23,606 nucleotides of DNA from a virus. The DNA lies in IMG/VR virus record IMGVR_UViG_3300021431_000069, positions 1 to 23,606 of that record; one strand, given 5' to 3'. Under the pieces are notes generated by a model. The model made no database searches and was not told the origin of the DNA. It worked only from the letters and a program-made list of their open reading frames with translations. Below are positions 2,431 to 23,606 of this stretch, in pieces; the first letter of the stretch is position 1, and each line of letters opens with the position of its first letter. The position numbers and the translations under genes are program-made.

Positions 2431-2823
2431 ATGAATAGAGTAAACCTTTGCGGACGGCTGACTAAGAATCCTGATCTACGAGCGACATCGACAGGAATGT
2501 CCGTCTGCTCGTTCACAGTAGCCGTCGACAGACCGAGAAACAAAGACGGATTAAAGGAGGCTGACTTCATTCGGTGCAAGGCTTTCGGCAAGCAAGGCGA
2601 GTCTATCGCATACTACAAGGGTAAAGGCGATATGATCGCCGTCGACGGTCGTCTGCAAACTGGGTCGTATGAGAAGGACGGAATTCGCCATTATACGACC
2701 GATGTAATCGTCGAGAGAGCGGACTTCCTCGCGAAAGAAAAACACGCTCAGATCGACGAAAAACAGCCTTCTGCGATGCCGTCAGGATTTGAGTCAATCG
2801 CGGACGACGATATTCCTTGGTAG
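2431..2823 (+). CDS. ssb: Single-stranded DNA-binding protein
   Basis: OB-fold N-terminus (MNRVNLCGRLTKNPDLR...SFTVAVDR...DFIRCKAFGKQGE...GDMIAVDGRLQTGSY) and the acidic C-terminal tip DDDIPW. Confidence 0.9.
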   Translation: MNRVNLCGRLTKNPDLRATSTGMSVCSFTVAVDRPRNKDGLKEADFIRCKAFGKQGESIAYYKGKGDMIAVDGRLQTGSYEKDGIRHYTTDVIVERADFLAKEKHAQIDEKQPSAMPSGFESIADDDIPW

Positions 2824-2831
2824 GTGCTGAT

Positions 2832-3356
2832 ATGAAGCATTTAGGAGACATCAAAAAAATAAACGGAGCGGAGATCGAGCCTGTTGATGTCGTGACAGGC
2901 GGGTCTCCGTGTCAGGACTTGTCTGTCGCTGGTAAACGCGCCGGACTTGATGGAGAGAGAAGCGGTCTGTTTATGGAGCAGATTCGAGTCATTAAGGAGA
3001 TGAGAGAACATGATAAAGCAAGCGGGCGAACAGATGAGTTTATTCGACCAAGATACATGGTTTGGGAAAACGTCATCGGAGCAATCTCGTCAAATGGGGG
3101 GGGAAGACTTCAGGTGCGTCCTCGAAGAGACGGCGCGGATCGTCGAGCCGTCCGCCTCTATTCCTCGACCTATCGGAAAGTGGACTCCGAGCGGGTGCAT
3201 CATGGGAGACGGATGGTCAATCGCTTGGAGAGTACACGACGCGCAGTTTTGGGGAGTACCCCAGCGAAGAAAACGTATCGCTCTTGTCGCAGATTTTGGA
3301 GGAAGAAGCGCCGCAGAAATACTATTTGTCAGAAAAGGCTTGTCGCGGGATTCTGA
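2832..3356 (+). CDS. C5-MTase fragment: motifs III, IV (PCQ) and VI (ENV), then an out-of-frame Arg-rich tail after the G8 tract
   Basis: The ATG 2832 ORF reads MKHLGDIKKINGAEIEPVDVVTGGSPCQDLSVAGKRAGL...RYMVWENVIGAISSNGGG. The conserved sequence continues in frame 1, not in this frame. Confidence 0.6.
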   Translation: MKHLGDIKKINGAEIEPVDVVTGGSPCQDLSVAGKRAGLDGERSGLFMEQIRVIKEMREHDKASGRTDEFIRPRYMVWENVIGAISSNGGGRLQVRPRRDGADRRAVRLYSSTYRKVDSERVHHGRRMVNRLESTRRAVLGSTPAKKTYRSCRRFWRKKRRRNTICQKRLVAGF

Positions 3357-3508: not shown

Positions 3509-4249
3509 ATGGAACAAAAGCGCGACACTCGGAGTATCTCAAGATCAGACGCTGTTTGTTTTATAAAAATGAAAACGGTTACTGAAAAGAGATACGGCGA
3601 ATATCACGAAGACGATAGAAGCGTCACTCTCCGTAACTCCGGCGCGACATATGGGGGGGGGAGCGAGGTACTTATTCTATCAAGACACAGTCGGAGCGAT
3701 ATGCGCGAGAGACTACAAGGGAGTCGGCAGTCAGTATGTCAGAGAGCAGAAGCTCATAGTAGAGGTAAAGAAATGCAAGGCATAAACGGAAGCATCGCTG
3801 GAACGCTCGACAGCAACTACTACAAAGGATGCGGAGAGCGTCAGAACATAGAAAGAGAGGTCGTCTATATGGAAAAAGAAGAAACCGCCGTCAGAAGACT
3901 CACGCCGCTCGAGTGCGAACGGCTTCAAGGGTTTCCGGATGGATGGACTGACATCGGAGAATGGACAGACTCAAAAGGTAAGAAACACAAAGAAGCGGAC
4001 TCTCCGAGATATAAAGCATTAGGAAACTCTATCGCGCTTCCGTTTTGGTTTTGGCTTCTTAGGAGAATATCTGCACAGTACGAACGTCCCGCAACGCTCG
4101 GAAGTCTGTTCGACGGGATCGGCGGCTTCCCGCTTTGTTGGGAGCGGTGCAACGGAAAAGGTACTGCAATATGGGCAAGCGAGATAGAGGAGTTTCCTAT
4201 CGCGGTAACAAAAATTAGGTTTCCAGAGGAGGGAATAAATGAGCTATAA
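3509..4249 (+). CDS. C5-MTase fragment: TRD-like modules, motifs IX-X, then motifs I-II at the C-terminus
   Basis: 246-aa ORF containing ...AGTLDSNYYKG...VRRLTPLECERLQGFPDGWTDIG...YKALGNSIALP...ERPATLGSLFDGIGGFPL...IWASEIEEFPIAVTKIRFPEE. An internal ATG at 3773 has an AGAGG 7 nt upstream. Confidence 0.65.
   Translation: MEQKRDTRSISRSDAVCFIKMKTVTEKRYGEYHEDDRSVTLRNSGATYGGGSEVLILSRHSRSDMRERLQGSRQSVCQRAEAHSRGKEMQGINGSIAGTLDSNYYKGCGERQNIEREVVYMEKEETAVRRLTPLECERLQGFPDGWTDIGEWTDSKGKKHKEADSPRYKALGNSIALPFWFWLLRRISAQYERPATLGSLFDGIGGFPLCWERCNGKGTAIWASEIEEFPIAVTKIRFPEEGINEL
3653..3661 (+). repeat. Poly-G tract G9 at the frame 2 / frame 3 junction of the MTase
   Basis: Counted directly. With G8 the reading would be ...SGATYGGGARYLFYQDTVGAICARDYKGVGSQYVREQKLIVE. 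Confidence 0.95.
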
Positions 4250-14376: not shown

Positions 14377-14466
14377 ATATGCGTAAAAACGTGAGGTGTA
14401 ATCTATCGACCGCATCTGTAAAAACGGCTTAGAACGAAAAACAGGCGGTCAGAAAGGACGAAGAAG

Positions 14467-14964
14467 ATGGAAAAGACTATTAAAGCGGGAAAAAAGAGCT
14501 ACAAACTCACGAATAAAGTCAAATGGATGCAAGTCTACAAAAACGAATTCGGTCGCGACATCATGCCGATGCTCGTCCCTGTGGCTAACGCTTTCCTCGA
14601 GCTTTCTGTGAGCGTAATGAAGGCGACAGGAGGCAAGGCTCTCGACATGAGCAAGGCGGGAGAAGTCCTGAAGGACATCGACATCGCAGACATACAGTCT
14701 TCTATGTATTCGCTCGCGGGTCTCGAGTTTACTGATCTGCTCGCGATCACTTGGAGCATGGCGAAGACGATGGACGAAGAAACGACCGACTTCGACACAT
14801 GGGTCGACGAGTTTGTCGACGACTTCTTCCCAGTCGACGAGATCGCTCCGACAATCGTTACGATGAACGCTAAAGCACTAATGTCGACAAAAAACTTCTC
14901 AAGGTTTCAGAAAGCGGTCGGAATTCTGAAACCGAAGACGACCTCGACCTCGACAGAATCCTAA
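14467..14964 (+). CDS. Tail assembly chaperone (gpG-like, zero-frame product)
   Basis: 165 aa between the major tail and tape-measure genes. Contains the slippery heptamer near its 3' end. Confidence 0.75.
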   Translation: MEKTIKAGKKSYKLTNKVKWMQVYKNEFGRDIMPMLVPVANAFLELSVSVMKATGGKALDMSKAGEVLKDIDIADIQSSMYSLAGLEFTDLLAITWSMAKTMDEETTDFDTWVDEFVDDFFPVDEIAPTIVTMNAKALMSTKNFSRFQKAVGILKPKTTSTSTES

Positions 14965-21074: not shown

Positions 21075-21316
21075 CAGACACAATGATAGTTGAAGCGGTC
21101 GGCTTCCTCGTCGCTCTGATCGCGGTCATCGCTCCAATCGTCCGACTAAACTCAAACATAGCGAGACTCAATGCAACGCTCGAAAACATGAGCGACGACA
21201 TCACCAAACACGACGGACGGCTCACGAAACACGGCGATCAAATCGAAGAGCTGAGTACCGAAGTCGCAAAGCACGATGTGCGTATATCTGTATTGGAGGA
21301 GAAGACAAAGCCATGA
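21071..21316 (+). CDS. Lysis-cassette membrane protein (N-terminal TM plus coiled coil; XhlA-like/holin accessory)
   Basis: AGGAGG at 21056-21061. ATGA overlap with the endolysin stop. TM helix VEAVGFLVALIAVIAPIV, then a heptad region. Confidence 0.5.
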   Translation: MTDTMIVEAVGFLVALIAVIAPIVRLNSNIARLNATLENMSDDITKHDGRLTKHGDQIEELSTEVAKHDVRISVLEEKTKP

Positions 21317-21546
21317 ATAAAAGATATTGGAAAGACCTTGCTCGGTGCGCGGCGGTGAGAGCGGTAAAGACGTTCTGTCAGACCGCGCTCAGTATGCTCA
21401 CAGTCGGACAGGCATTTATTGAAGTCAACTGGGCGAATGTGTTGTCCGTCAGCGGTGTCGCGGCGGTCATCTCCATCATGACCAGTATAGCCGGACTTCC
21501 TGAGGTGGACGATACTAAGGTATACGACCTGACACACGACAAATAG
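21313..21546 (+). CDS. Holin
   Basis: 77 aa. ...AVRAVKTFCQTALSMLTVGQ...VSGVAAVISIMTSIAGLPE matches the small holin families of Firmicutes phages. It is the last gene before a strong terminator. Confidence 0.7.
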   Translation: MNKRYWKDLARCAAVRAVKTFCQTALSMLTVGQAFIEVNWANVLSVSGVAAVISIMTSIAGLPEVDDTKVYDLTHDK

Positions 21547-21591
21547 AAGACGATTCCGACGGCTTCCCATCTTCACCGATCGGAAGGAAAG

Positions 21592-21616
21592 AGACCTCTT
21601 CGGAGGTCTTTTTTTA
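21592..21616 (+). terminator. Rho-independent terminator ending the late operon
   Basis: AGACCTC-TTCG-GAGGTCT followed by T7. Confidence 0.85.
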
Positions 21617-21655
21617 TTTGCATAAAATCCGTTATGTAAATGCCATGAGAAAAAA

Positions 21656-21672
21656 ATCACTCAAAGAGTGAT
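21656..21672. promoter_or_regulatory. Operator-like palindrome O1: ATCACTC-AAA-GAGTGAT
   Basis: Perfect 7-bp inverted arms read directly, located upstream of the -35. Confidence 0.7.
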
Positions 21673-21680
21673 AAAAATGC

Positions 21681-21712
21681 TTTACAAGTCACTCAATGAG
21701 TGATAATATAAT
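21681..21712 (+). promoter_or_regulatory. Promoter: -35 TTTACA, 17 nt spacer, extended -10 TGaTAATAT (a perfect TATAAT also lies at 21707-21712)
   Basis: Hexamers at 21681-21686 and 21704-21709, with TG at 21701-21702. Confidence 0.65.
21688..21704. promoter_or_regulatory. Operator-like palindrome O2: GTCACTC-AAT-GAGTGAT, occupying the promoter spacer and -10 edge
   Basis: Same architecture as O1, differing at 2 of 17 positions. It overlaps the core promoter. Confidence 0.7.
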
Positions 21713-21758
21713 TACAGAAGATGAAAGCGGGTTCGCCCAATTGAAAGGAGCACAGAAA

Positions 21759-22319
21759 ATGAAGCGTTACGAAACACTCGAGACTATCAAGGTCGGAACT
21801 TACATCTACAACACTTATAGCACCGGCAAAGAGAACAAAATCGTCATCACCGAGATCGTGGAAAAAGGCGGAAAGAAATTCGCCGTCGGCACAAGAAACG
21901 GAGTCGAGGCTCGTTTCGAAATCAAGGTCAACAGCACATTCAATTATGAGTATTTTGTTCCGATGAACAAGCGCGGAAGAGTCCAGTCCACGACTAATGT
22001 CGTTTGGGAACATCACAGAGTAAAGGACGAAGAGTCCGACGAGATCATCGACGAAGCCATCGTTGACCTGATCGCCGCAGAAGAGGTCGAAAGAGATGCG
22101 GTCATCGCACAGGTAATGAGAGCGGAAATCGCCGAACGTCAACAGGCTTGGGAAGTTTTCACCGATGGATACGGCGAGGACTTCGACGCATACTTCGCCG
22201 ATTACAAAGACGACTACACGGTCGAGCACAGAAAAGACGGTTTCATCGTCAGCCATATCGCCGGAGGTCATCCTTGGAGAGTGGTCGACTCCGTCACCGT
22301 CGAAAAACTGTTTTTCTAA
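21759..22319 (+). CDS. Hypothetical acidic protein (186 aa), first gene of the post-lysis cassette
   Basis: AAAGGAG at 21744-21750 precedes ATG 21759. By my count there are 35 Asp+Glu against 24 Lys+Arg, with a very acidic C-terminal half. No recognisable family. Confidence 0.6.
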   Translation: MKRYETLETIKVGTYIYNTYSTGKENKIVITEIVEKGGKKFAVGTRNGVEARFEIKVNSTFNYEYFVPMNKRGRVQSTTNVVWEHHRVKDEESDEIIDEAIVDLIAAEEVERDAVIAQVMRAEIAERQQAWEVFTDGYGEDFDAYFADYKDDYTVEHRKDGFIVSHIAGGHPWRVVDSVTVEKLFF

Positions 22320-22340
22320 AGAAGTAAAGGAGCGAGACAA

Positions 22341-22505
22341 ATGAAAGACAAGCGCATTATGAATTATCTCGGTCGCGTAATATGGATGAGTGAATACGGT
22401 TTCATGGTGGCAAAAGGCGACGGAACAGACGAATACTTCGCCACCATCGAGGAAGCAATGAACTATATAGAAGACGCGGTCAAGAATGTGAAAAAGGAGG
22501 ACTAA
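22341..22505 (+). CDS. Hypothetical 54-aa protein (below the ORF-track cutoff)
   Basis: AAGGAG at 22327-22332 precedes ATG 22341. Translates as MKDKRIMNYLGRVIWMSEYGFMVAKGDGTDEYFATIEEAMNYIEDAVKNVKKED. Confidence 0.55.
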   Translation: MKDKRIMNYLGRVIWMSEYGFMVAKGDGTDEYFATIEEAMNYIEDAVKNVKKED

Positions 22506-22506
22506 C

Positions 22507-22698
22507 ATGACATCAGCAGAAAGAGCGAAAGCGATCAGGAAAGCGAGCCGTCTGACACAGGCGGCTTTCGCTGAGCGGTACGGCATCCCTAAACGGACGG
22601 TCGAAAACTGGGAAGGCGGTCAGCGGGACGCTCCGTCCTATGTGCTCGACCTTCTCGAGAGATGCGTCTTAGAGGACGCGAAAAAAGCGGAGGACTAA
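22507..22698 (+). CDS. XRE-family helix-turn-helix regulator (63 aa)
   Basis: RKASRLTQAAFAERYGIPKRTVENWEGGQRDAPSYVLDLLE is a canonical XRE HTH. AAGGAGG RBS. Confidence 0.8.
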   Translation: MTSAERAKAIRKASRLTQAAFAERYGIPKRTVENWEGGQRDAPSYVLDLLERCVLEDAKKAED

Positions 22699-22716
22699 TC
22701 CATCGACCTACATACT

Positions 22717-22773
22717 AAAAACGTCTTAGAACGAAAAACAGGCGGTCAAATGACCGTCTGTTTCTCGCTTAAG
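22717..22773. terminator. Long imperfect hairpin / bidirectional-type terminator (core AAACAGGCGGTCA-AA-TGACCGTCTGTTT at 22736-22763)
   Basis: An A tract, an 11-bp GC-rich stem with one G-T pair, and a T-rich tail. The arms extend with mismatches out to CTTAG...CTTAAG. Confidence 0.65.
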
Positions 22774-22893
22774 GAGTGCTTCTGCTGAAAATGAAGACTT
22801 GAGGGAGTTTCAAAATGAAACCAAAAAATTAATTATTGATGACACCAAGAGTATAAACCAACAGGAGAATAGAAAACCATACACACAAAACTG

Positions 22894-22922
22894 TTGACAG
22901 CCGTTTTCCAGTTTGTTATCTT
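22894..22922 (+). promoter_or_regulatory. Candidate early promoter: consensus -35 TTGACA, 17 nt spacer, -10 TATCTT
   Basis: TTGACA at 22894-22899 and TATCTT at 22917-22922, inside a 356-nt noncoding AT-rich region upstream of the first early gene. Confidence 0.5.
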
Positions 22923-23054
22923 ATTGGTAGTGATTAACTGTTCCCTAAATTATGACCTACGGAAATGGTACTTTCTACCATCCGACAGAACACATAACAA
23001 CGAGAGCAGTCTATCACATTCGGTATTATAGAGCAATGTGAAAGGAGGCTCGAC

Positions 23055-23426
23055 ATGAAGACTAACAGGAGACCGCGCTTCGCTGGACTCGACGCACAGT
23101 CCGCTTCAGGACTCGCCAAGATGCTCAATGAATTCTTCGAGGAGCATCAGAGCGAAAAAGTAGAAGTGACTTACTGCTTCGAGCATGGCATGAGCGCGGT
23201 TTTATCGTGGGAGGAAGAGACTAAAGTCCCTGAGTCGCTTCGCGAGGAGTATGAGCTGAGAGGCGAACGCTACACTTGCGAGGACTGCGACAAGAGACTT
23301 CCCTCGATGGACGGACGCAAGCGGTGCGAATGGTACTGTCTTAGACGACCGAGAGGGACAGACCTGACCGCTCCCGCTTGCAACGACTTTTACTTGAGAT
23401 TGGAGGGAGAGAATGGAGAAGGCTAA
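23055..23426 (+). CDS. Hypothetical protein with a C-terminal Cys cluster (123 aa)
   Basis: AAAGGAGG RBS before ATG 23055. Contains CEDCDKRL...C..C...C. Confidence 0.55.
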   Translation: MKTNRRPRFAGLDAQSASGLAKMLNEFFEEHQSEKVEVTYCFEHGMSAVLSWEEETKVPESLREEYELRGERYTCEDCDKRLPSMDGRKRCEWYCLRRPRGTDLTAPACNDFYLRLEGENGEG

Positions 23427-23606
23427 CAGGACATCAAAAAGGCTGTGGATCGCTGAGGTCAAATATAAGATGGCTCTTCGCGAGATCACCGGCGCGGCAC
23501 TCTCGGCGGCGACTGGATACAGTCTGAACTATATCTATCGCGCCACAGGCGGAACGTGCGACTCGCCGAAACTGGTCAAAGCGATCAGCGACTATCTCGG
23601 CATCGA
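23413..23606 (+). CDS. N-terminal part of the 69-aa HTH-like protein (runs off the window end and finishes at 141 after wrap-around)
   Basis: GGAGGGAG RBS before ATG 23413. The ORF is open to the end of the window and continues seamlessly into bases 126-141 through the 125-nt overlap. Confidence 0.6.
   Translation, partial: MEKANRTSKRLWIAEVKYKMALREITGAALSAATGYSLNYIYRATGGTCDSPKLVKAISDYLGI
23482..23606. repeat. Terminal direct repeat (right copy), identical to 1-125
   Basis: See the left copy. Confidence 0.95.

Follow-up and report, generated by a model that had tools for sequence, protein, structure and literature searches.

A terminator-insulated, probably autorepressed cassette with exchangeable cargo in an apparently virulent phage, and its possible role against host defences

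The IMG/VR virus record IMGVR_UViG_3300021431_000069 (positions 1 to 23,606; here "the window", i.e., the whole 23,606-nucleotide [nt] stretch that was analysed) carries behind its lysis genes a short unit (21656–22698) in which genes for two proteins of 186 and 54 amino acids (aa) precede a gene for a 63-aa helix-turn-helix (HTH) protein. Is this unit an anti-CRISPR (Acr) operon controlled by an anti-CRISPR-associated (Aca) repressor, as a first, sequence-only reading of the DNA had proposed, or does it only share the architecture of one? We estimate a probability of about 0.6 that it is an autorepressed, insulated immediate-early accessory cassette of an apparently virulent phage, with a cargo (the genes between promoter and HTH gene) most likely made of defence inhibitors or other host-takeover factors. 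The two halves of this proposal differ in strength: autoregulation of the cassette is highly probable, and an anti-defence role of its cargo falls slightly short of an even chance.

The anatomy of the cassette is established. It lies directly behind the lysis genes, the last of which encodes a holin (21313–21546, plus strand; Pfam Phage_r1t_holin), and it is enclosed by terminators, both as had been claimed. The late (lysis) intrinsic terminator (21586–21620, plus strand) has the core stem GAGACCTC-TTCG-GAGGTCTC followed by T7; the segment 21586–21615 with its U-run folds at -16.8 kcal/mol (z -4.8), and the terminator is kept behind the holin gene in the related contigs L001, L002, L005, L016 and L019. 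The closing hairpin terminator (22725–22773, plus strand) consists of the stem ACAGGCGGTCA / TGACCGTCTGT, then TTTCTCGCTT, and has a weaker U-tract and a folding energy of -24.5 kcal/mol (z -5.9); its stem is maintained by compensatory changes in relatives, e.g., ATAGGCGG/CCGCCTAT in L016.

Transcription is predicted to start near position 21716, from a σA-type promoter (P1, 21681–21709, plus strand) with a TTTACA -35 element (21681–21686), a 17-nt spacer and an extended -10 element TGaTAATAT (21701–21709). Its counterparts in relatives are mostly perfect TTGACA / TATAAT-like promoters. Two 17-bp palindromes, to which no strand is assigned, accompany P1. The primary operator O2, GTCACTCAATGAGTGAT (21688–21704), occupies the P1 spacer and touches the -10 element, and the auxiliary operator O1, ATCACTCAAAGAGTGAT (21656–21672), is located in the UP-element zone. 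The two differ at two positions, with their centres 32 bp, or about three helical turns, apart. Promoter elements and palindromes were all found where the sequence-only reading had placed them. The 5' leader of P1 has no significant fold (z +0.9) and thus shows no sign of an Aca2-type RNA operator.

Three plus-strand genes of the sizes first listed follow P1: cargo gene 1 (186 aa, 21759–22319), cargo gene 2 (54 aa, 22341–22505) and the HTH gene (63 aa, 22507–22698). Each is preceded by an AAAGGAG-type ribosome-binding site, and 1 nt separates the stop of the 54-aa gene from the start of the HTH gene. A longer version of the 186-aa open reading frame (ORF) would start at 21696, inside O2 and the -10 element and upstream of the predicted transcription start, so the real start was placed at 21759; homologues of the protein start at the corresponding Met. 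A 297-aa antisense ORF that spans the entire cassette (21693–22586, minus strand) was judged spurious because it crosses three plus-strand genes with strong ribosome-binding sites and database homologues, and because it spans recombination breakpoints that differ between relatives.

Are the palindromes operators? With up to two mismatches, TCACTCANNGAGTGA matches only O1 and O2 in the entire genome, a count that is a weak statistic by itself, 6 of 100 shuffles having reached as many. We scanned all fetched loci (1.98 Mb, both strands) for CAC-N7-GTG inside a 16–18-nt spacer, allowing at most 2 mismatches in each promoter hexamer. The scan yielded 120 matches, and 104 of them were located within 3 kb upstream of an HTH homologue (32–100% identity) on the same strand. 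Seven more operators have a TTGCAT -35 element, which brings the set to 111 operators with 50 unique 15-mers. The CAC/GTG arms are essentially invariant, and 45 of the 50 unique 15-mers have complementary bases at mirror positions 6 and 10 (CG 34, GC 6, AT 5), when 25 would be expected if the positions were independent. This symmetric covariation is the signature of a dyad-symmetric dimer site and, together with a promoter position shared by more than 100 related loci, is the decisive evidence that the O1/O2 palindrome is not due to chance. An O1-type second site, 22–32 nt before the -35 element, was present in 8 of the 104 loci, from four lineages, and matched the sequence of its own O2 each time.

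The pairing of HTH and operator is conserved. The operator remains in the promoter spacer of every close relative, with the arrangement TTGACA-ta-TCACTCAATGAGTGG-TAATAT in L005, TTGCAT-ta-TCACTCAATGGGTGA-TATATT in L001 and TCACCGAATCGGTGG in L016. HTH-operator loci came from human-gut and rumen metagenomes and from metagenome-assembled genomes (MAGs) or isolates of Lachnospiraceae, Eubacterium, Ruminococcus, Erysipelotrichaceae, Veillonella and Mollicutes, and the pairing appears to be old and widespread. We counted 109 loci bracketed by promoter-operator and HTH gene; in 83 of them the HTH is encoded last, behind cargo, for a total of 158 cargo ORFs that fall into 65 families and 50 arrangements. 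These ORFs are short (median 80 aa) and more acidic (median isoelectric point [pI] 5.2) than other small ORFs of the same loci (6.5; Mann-Whitney p = 0.003). Representative cargo scanned against Pfam and PHROGs had no housekeeping or other annotated homologue.

The same module was also observed in other configurations. In Mollicutes/Izemoplasma MAGs (L183 540–1409; L131, L156, L169, L176 and L179), a spacer-operator promoter stands immediately before the gene for a fusion of an HTH of this family with an MNT-type nucleotidyltransferase; in L183, a HEPN (RNRIVHDY) gene comes next. From its sequence, this unit appears to be an autoregulated HEPN-MNT toxin-antitoxin pair under the same control module. 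In Robinsoniella peoriensis (L118 2992–3432) and in the Clostridia loci L119 and L136, a fusion joins the HTH to an acidic C-terminal domain whose homologue is a free-standing 77-aa cargo protein (...ILQTRVMVTGIN) of ~45-kb gut phage contigs.

Turnover of the cargo is plain among the close relatives, defined here as metagenomic contigs that share with the window the holin (77–96% identity), the downstream 123-aa gene and, behind other cargo, the terminal HTH (84–98% identity). Between promoter and HTH gene, where the window has 186 aa + 54 aa, L001, L002 and L004 encode a single 190-aa protein with a 186-aa-type N-terminal domain (78%) and an unrelated C-terminal half, and they have no 54-aa gene. 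The interval of L005 contains genes of 43 aa, 53 aa (a homologue of the 54-aa protein, 96%), 77 aa and 57/72 aa. The other contigs carry 165 + 77 + 50 + 89 aa (L016), 82 + 68 + 103 aa (L010), 134 + 94 + 103 aa (L102), 106 + 76 + 89 aa (L097), at least 161 + 62 aa (L017), 77 + 57 aa (L018) and 77 aa alone (L019). Altogether, at least 12 arrangements of ~17 cargo families were counted in the close relatives. Breakpoints of DNA homology with the window fall at the -10 element (~21711), within the 186-aa gene at its domain boundary (~22045), and at two ribosome-binding sites, that of the 54-aa gene (22326) and that of the HTH gene (22485–22493). The alignments indicate that the genes between promoter-operator and HTH are swapped wholesale between phages with near-identical flanks.

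About 30 representative cargo proteins from relatives belonged to no annotated family in Pfam or PHROGs. The 165-aa cargo of one relative had a sub-threshold match to Pfam AcrIIA4 (17 bits, cut-off 27; E 0.006); this lead was rejected because a PDB profile search (E up to 10) with that module missed AcrIIA4 and so failed to reproduce the match.

What does the window's own cargo encode? The 186-aa protein has no recognisable family, as had been noted: searches of Pfam, PHROGs, NCBIfam, PADLOC and PDB gave no match. It had also been described as strongly acidic with an acidic C-terminal half. The latter holds (pI 4.2), and the former does not, since the pI is 5.0 overall and 9.4 in the N-terminal half. 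The basic N-terminal part (~aa 1–95) is β-barrel-like and the C-terminal half partly helical. An AF2 model had a pLDDT of 49 overall, 66–87 at aa 11–70 (a small β-barrel) and <40 in the acidic half, and Foldseek returned nothing below E 0.1 with it, the weak Tudor/SH3-like barrel matches above 0.1 being uninformative. Homologues are rare (4 in 5.8 billion clusters and 8 matches in 1.84 billion representatives), and the family is mosaic, with the N-terminal domain kept at 78% identity and the C-terminal half exchanged. One C-terminal module, GDVVEIDGKEYEVTAVENYGFFVKG, was also found as stand-alone proteins of 52–59 aa or fused to at least 4 different N-terminal domains (L001 4455–5027; P0043–P0048), which suggests that cargo proteins are themselves assembled by domain shuffling.

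The 54-aa protein is acidic (pI 4.8), in agreement with its first description. Its homologues form 17 clusters, none of them named, with an invariant A-[KR]-G-D-G-T-D-x-x-F loop that resembles half an EF-hand. The AF2 model (pLDDT 88) has four strands plus a helix. A family profile had no sequence match to any PDB chain, and the structure search with the model gave no significant neighbour, only uncharacterised viral or phage proteins at E ≥0.1. AcrIIA22, a clostridial protein likewise of 54 aa, was considered as a relative and discarded, as no such PDB chain was found by profile and no fold matched. Members of the 54-aa family occur again after the lysis genes of unrelated phages. In L106, which has a different holin family, a TTGACA promoter with a different palindrome is followed by a 61-aa homologue, a 69-aa gene and then a 148-aa protein with an N-terminal HTH of the window HTH family; in the temperate phage L109, a family member is located between lysin and integrase.

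The last gene encodes an Xre-type HTH protein, as the sequence-only reading had stated: the 63-aa product passed the Pfam cut-offs of HTH_31 (30 bits, cut-off 27) and HTH_3 (26.6 bits, cut-off 23). NCBIfam and PADLOC gave only sub-threshold generic HTH matches, and the MqsA-family model (TIGR03830) reached 27 bits against a cut-off of 61.8 bits. With the HTH family profile, the best PDB neighbour was Atu1735 (2ppx, E 1.6e-9), followed by Stl, HigA-2, the 434 repressor and HipB. The protein seems to belong to a different, MqsA/YiaG-like Xre lineage, and it is predicted to be a dimeric autorepressor that binds O2 and O1.

The following sequence of events can be proposed. As a host-type promoter right behind a terminator, P1 should fire on phage entry, when host σA RNA polymerase would start there. 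A single short mRNA (~21716 to ~22770) would be made, from which the 186-aa and 54-aa cargo proteins, and then the translationally coupled 63-aa HTH at its end, would be produced. HTH dimers would subsequently fill O2 in the -35/-10 spacer, and also O1, which is three helical turns upstream, on the same DNA face and in the UP-element zone. Occupancy of O2 and O1 would exclude RNA polymerase and limit cargo expression to a brief, self-limiting early pulse. The closing terminator would separate the cassette from P2, the promoter of the next operon. With the promoter-operator at its left end and the HTH gene at its right, the unit would form a conserved bracket inside which recombination swaps cargo genes. 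The comparative data on loci, operators and cargo provide good support for an Aca-like autorepressor on an immediate-early cassette.

Aca proteins, whose genes lie downstream of acr genes, are HTH repressors; they bind inverted repeats in the acr promoter and limit the early burst of expression; in the case of Aca13, the inverted repeats sit between the -35 element and the -10 element (PMC13551039, PMC12282945). The acr-aca operons (Aca1–Aca14) and the cassette are alike in a strong promoter active on entry, a gene order in which a small HTH follows small, new and variable genes, inverted repeats over the core promoter (a second repeat being common there), and a conserved regulator that serves as an anchor for guilt-by-association (PMC13551039, PMC12282945, PMC9410906). 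Aca regulators are small DNA-binding proteins, mostly HTH and rarely RHH. In the window, a small HTH is encoded in the same operon as, and downstream of, the genes that it would control, and inverted repeats lie in the core promoter. The two differ in that the cargo of the window is neither a validated nor a homologous Acr, and in the hosts: gut or rumen Clostridia and relatives here, mostly Proteobacteria or Streptococcus for the characterised Aca families.

The acr-aca-like architecture first proposed is supported, and considerably strengthened, by 109 loci and by operator covariation. The anti-defence function proposed with it is argued from context: the hypervariability of the cargo, its bias in size and charge, the absence of housekeeping homologues in the library scans (a finding that, had it been otherwise, would have spoken against the proposal), and a lysis-adjacent location as in other Firmicutes phages. 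If the cargo, as is most likely, consists of inhibitors of defence or of other takeover factors, the HTH would act like an Aca repressor.

Several observations weigh against an anti-defence role. The sequence-only reading had suggested comparing the HTH with Aca families and the upstream proteins with Acr and anti-defence proteins, and both comparisons turned out unfavourably. Among the solved Aca structures, the HTH profile matched 7xi5, which we take to be Aca10, at E 0.028 and Aca3 (9vt3) at E 0.23, when compared with E 0.002 for the 434 repressor; no other chain named Aca was listed in the PDB profile search (E up to 10). The HTH is thus no closer to the Aca proteins compared than to generic Xre proteins and was placed in no named Aca family. 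The window cargo had no match to a known Acr or anti-defence protein in Pfam, PHROGs, NCBIfam, PDB or BFVD, and the cargo of relatives had no significant one in Pfam or PHROGs. With no Acr among the cargo and no membership in an Aca family tested, both features that define an acr-aca operon are missing from an otherwise fitting architecture. The HTH-operator module also heads the HEPN-MNT pair, suggesting a general, function-agnostic autoregulatory device, so that the module alone does not mark its cargo as anti-defence. The argument that the 186-aa protein is a DNA mimic (Ocr/ArdA-like) is weak at pI 5.0 and with a low-confidence model. Outside the window, a crude, home-made caller was used to predict the cargo ORFs.

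The best-surviving alternative, which we regard as unlikely though worth serious consideration, keeps the same autorepressed early cassette and assigns its cargo to general host takeover or another accessory role, for example to block the transcription, replication or division of the host, to exclude competing phages or to tune metabolism. Early regions of virulent phages encode many small, fast-evolving proteins. The lack of a recognisable cargo family and a module not bound to one cargo type are both compatible with such a role, and the invariant GDGTD of the 54-aa family suggests more than an acidic surface, namely a specific site for binding or for a metal. Against it stand the 50 arrangements of 65 families and the wholesale change of presence and absence between near-identical phages, a turnover more in keeping with a strain-specific arms race than with core takeover functions, which a phage lineage usually conserves.

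A second alternative, raised from the outset, concerns the setting of the cassette in the genome. The two ends of the window are identical over 125 nt (1–125 = 23482–23606), so the genome is complete, circular or terminally redundant, with a length of 23,481 bp. Every plausible gene lies on the plus strand. Among the products of the early region are ERF, a DnaD-like loader, SSB, DNA methyltransferase pieces and a resolvase; no integrase or CI-like repressor was found among the ten early ORFs scanned against PHROGs, and no further ORF of integrase size is present in the early region. The phage is small and apparently virulent. With the late terminator on one side and the early ERF, DnaD-like and SSB genes on the other, the cassette sits exactly at the junction where the late (lysis) genes end and the early genes begin. 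The next operon starts from a conserved promoter of its own (P2, 22894–22922, plus strand; TTGACA-17-TGtTATCTT) without palindrome, and has a leader of ~130 nt before the gene for a 123-aa Cys-rich protein (23055–23426).

It could be argued that the HTH acts as a Cro-like master regulator of early genes, with two unrelated passenger genes upstream, as its small Xre/Cro-type fold and its location at this junction, beside the early operon, would allow. We consider this very unlikely. Although the genome is complete, P1, from which the HTH itself is expressed, is the sole promoter with the operator, and operator-free P2 drives the next operon; both points disfavour such a regulator. In addition, no CI partner, integrase or divergent promoter pair was found, and every gene lies on one strand; in other lineages the module occurs by itself or in fusion with cargo, and a separate, weak Cro/C1-like candidate of 69 aa is encoded downstream.

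A toxin-antitoxin or abortive-infection-type addiction module in HigBA or MqsRA order (HTH as antitoxin-repressor, upstream gene as toxin) is marginally less probable still: the nearest named HTH relatives are of antitoxin type (TIGR03830, HigA-2, HipB), the same HTH and operator head the HEPN-MNT pair of Mollicutes MAGs, and toxin-antitoxin operons are likewise autoregulated through promoter palindromes, but the antitoxin matches are far under family cut-offs (27 vs. 61.8 bits), no toxin family in Pfam, NCBIfam or PADLOC matches the upstream proteins, which are acidic, the setting is a virulent phage, and one to four unrelated cargo genes accompany the same HTH, an interchangeability incompatible with a cognate pair.

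How does an autorepressed cassette with possible anti-defence cargo compare with other known systems? The AcrIIA1-controlled anti-CRISPR loci of Listeria prophages, which Osuna et al. reportedly described in 2020, are alike in the Firmicutes phage, the lysis-adjacent locus and an HTH autorepressor acting through a promoter palindrome. They differ in that AcrIIA1 is a bifunctional first gene, whereas here a separate 63-aa HTH comes last, and no sequence similarity was detected. AcrIIA1 and the HTH-fused Acrs (AcrIIA13–15, AcrIF24) are paralleled by the HTH-cargo fusions of the Clostridia loci L118, L119 and L136. The AcrIIA22 islands of clostridial (CAG-217) prophages, with 54 arrangements in 128 loci, share hypervariable small dark ORFs, gut clostridial phages and recombination between conserved flanks; in contrast, their anchor is the Acr itself, a 54-aa nickase, and a regulator or operator is not described there (PMC8545432). 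Controller (C) proteins of restriction-modification systems and HigA/MqsA-type antitoxins are the nearest named sequence neighbours of the window HTH, and are alike as small Xre HTH dimers that autoregulate through one or two promoter palindromes. In the cassette, unlike in those systems, there is no restriction-enzyme or toxin partner, the regulator is last rather than first, and the cargo is interchangeable. Computational Acr-Aca screening has been applied to gut viromes (PMC12095918, PMC9765179), and operons of this kind may already be on its lists.

Other features of the genome were recorded. The source environment of the phage is gut or rumen. GenBank phages gave no DNA or protein match to it, base composition shows no sign of foreign origin, and an Rfam scan of 21400–23606 was negative. 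In the P2 leader, itself without an Rfam match, a long-range 7-bp stem is kept in 9 relatives, with changes on both sides at 3 pairs. In this long stem CTGTT/AGCAG changes to CACTT/AAGTG, and an inner hairpin covaries from CGGA..TCCG to TGGG..CCCA. The leader also contains AGTGAT (22929–22934) and ATCAC (23013–23017), similar to outer operator half-sites. The weak Cro/C1-like 69-aa ORF (start 23413) crosses the genome junction. Two adjacent ORFs, 2817–3356 and 3509–4249, both match phage DNA methyltransferase families and may form a split or two-part methyltransferase, a separate anti-restriction measure. Finally, a segment of ~75 nt is duplicated at roughly 80–85% identity between the tail-gene region (14385–14456), where it directly precedes the gene 14467–14964, and 22690–22760. 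It comprises the 3' end of the HTH gene and the 5' arm of its terminator, the copy in the tail region having no 3' arm of the hairpin, and may represent either a scar left by recombination or a module boundary in common.

Phages of gut and rumen Clostridia have yielded few known anti-defence proteins, and good anchors for finding more are lacking. Here, a regulator family, a conserved operator and an exact promoter context tag at least 65 small dark protein families in 109 loci that bear the marks of rapid exchange. A broader proposal, which we put forward tentatively and with the odds leaning against it, is that the cassette is a portable slot in many gut and rumen Bacillota phages and elements, that the at least 65 dark cargo families, those of the mosaic 186-aa protein and of the 54-aa protein with its GDGTD motif among them, are a large set of new counter-defence inhibitors, and that the HTH is a new Aca family with a known operator. 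If even a few of the cargo proteins are defence inhibitors, the HTH together with CAC-N7-GTG in the promoter spacer would be a practical search key for anti-defence genes in Clostridia. The module would also be a compact, self-limiting expression device for Firmicutes and, even if the cargo has other roles, a natural pulse-generating promoter-repressor bracket that tolerates arbitrary inserts and appears to be used for toxin-antitoxin control too.

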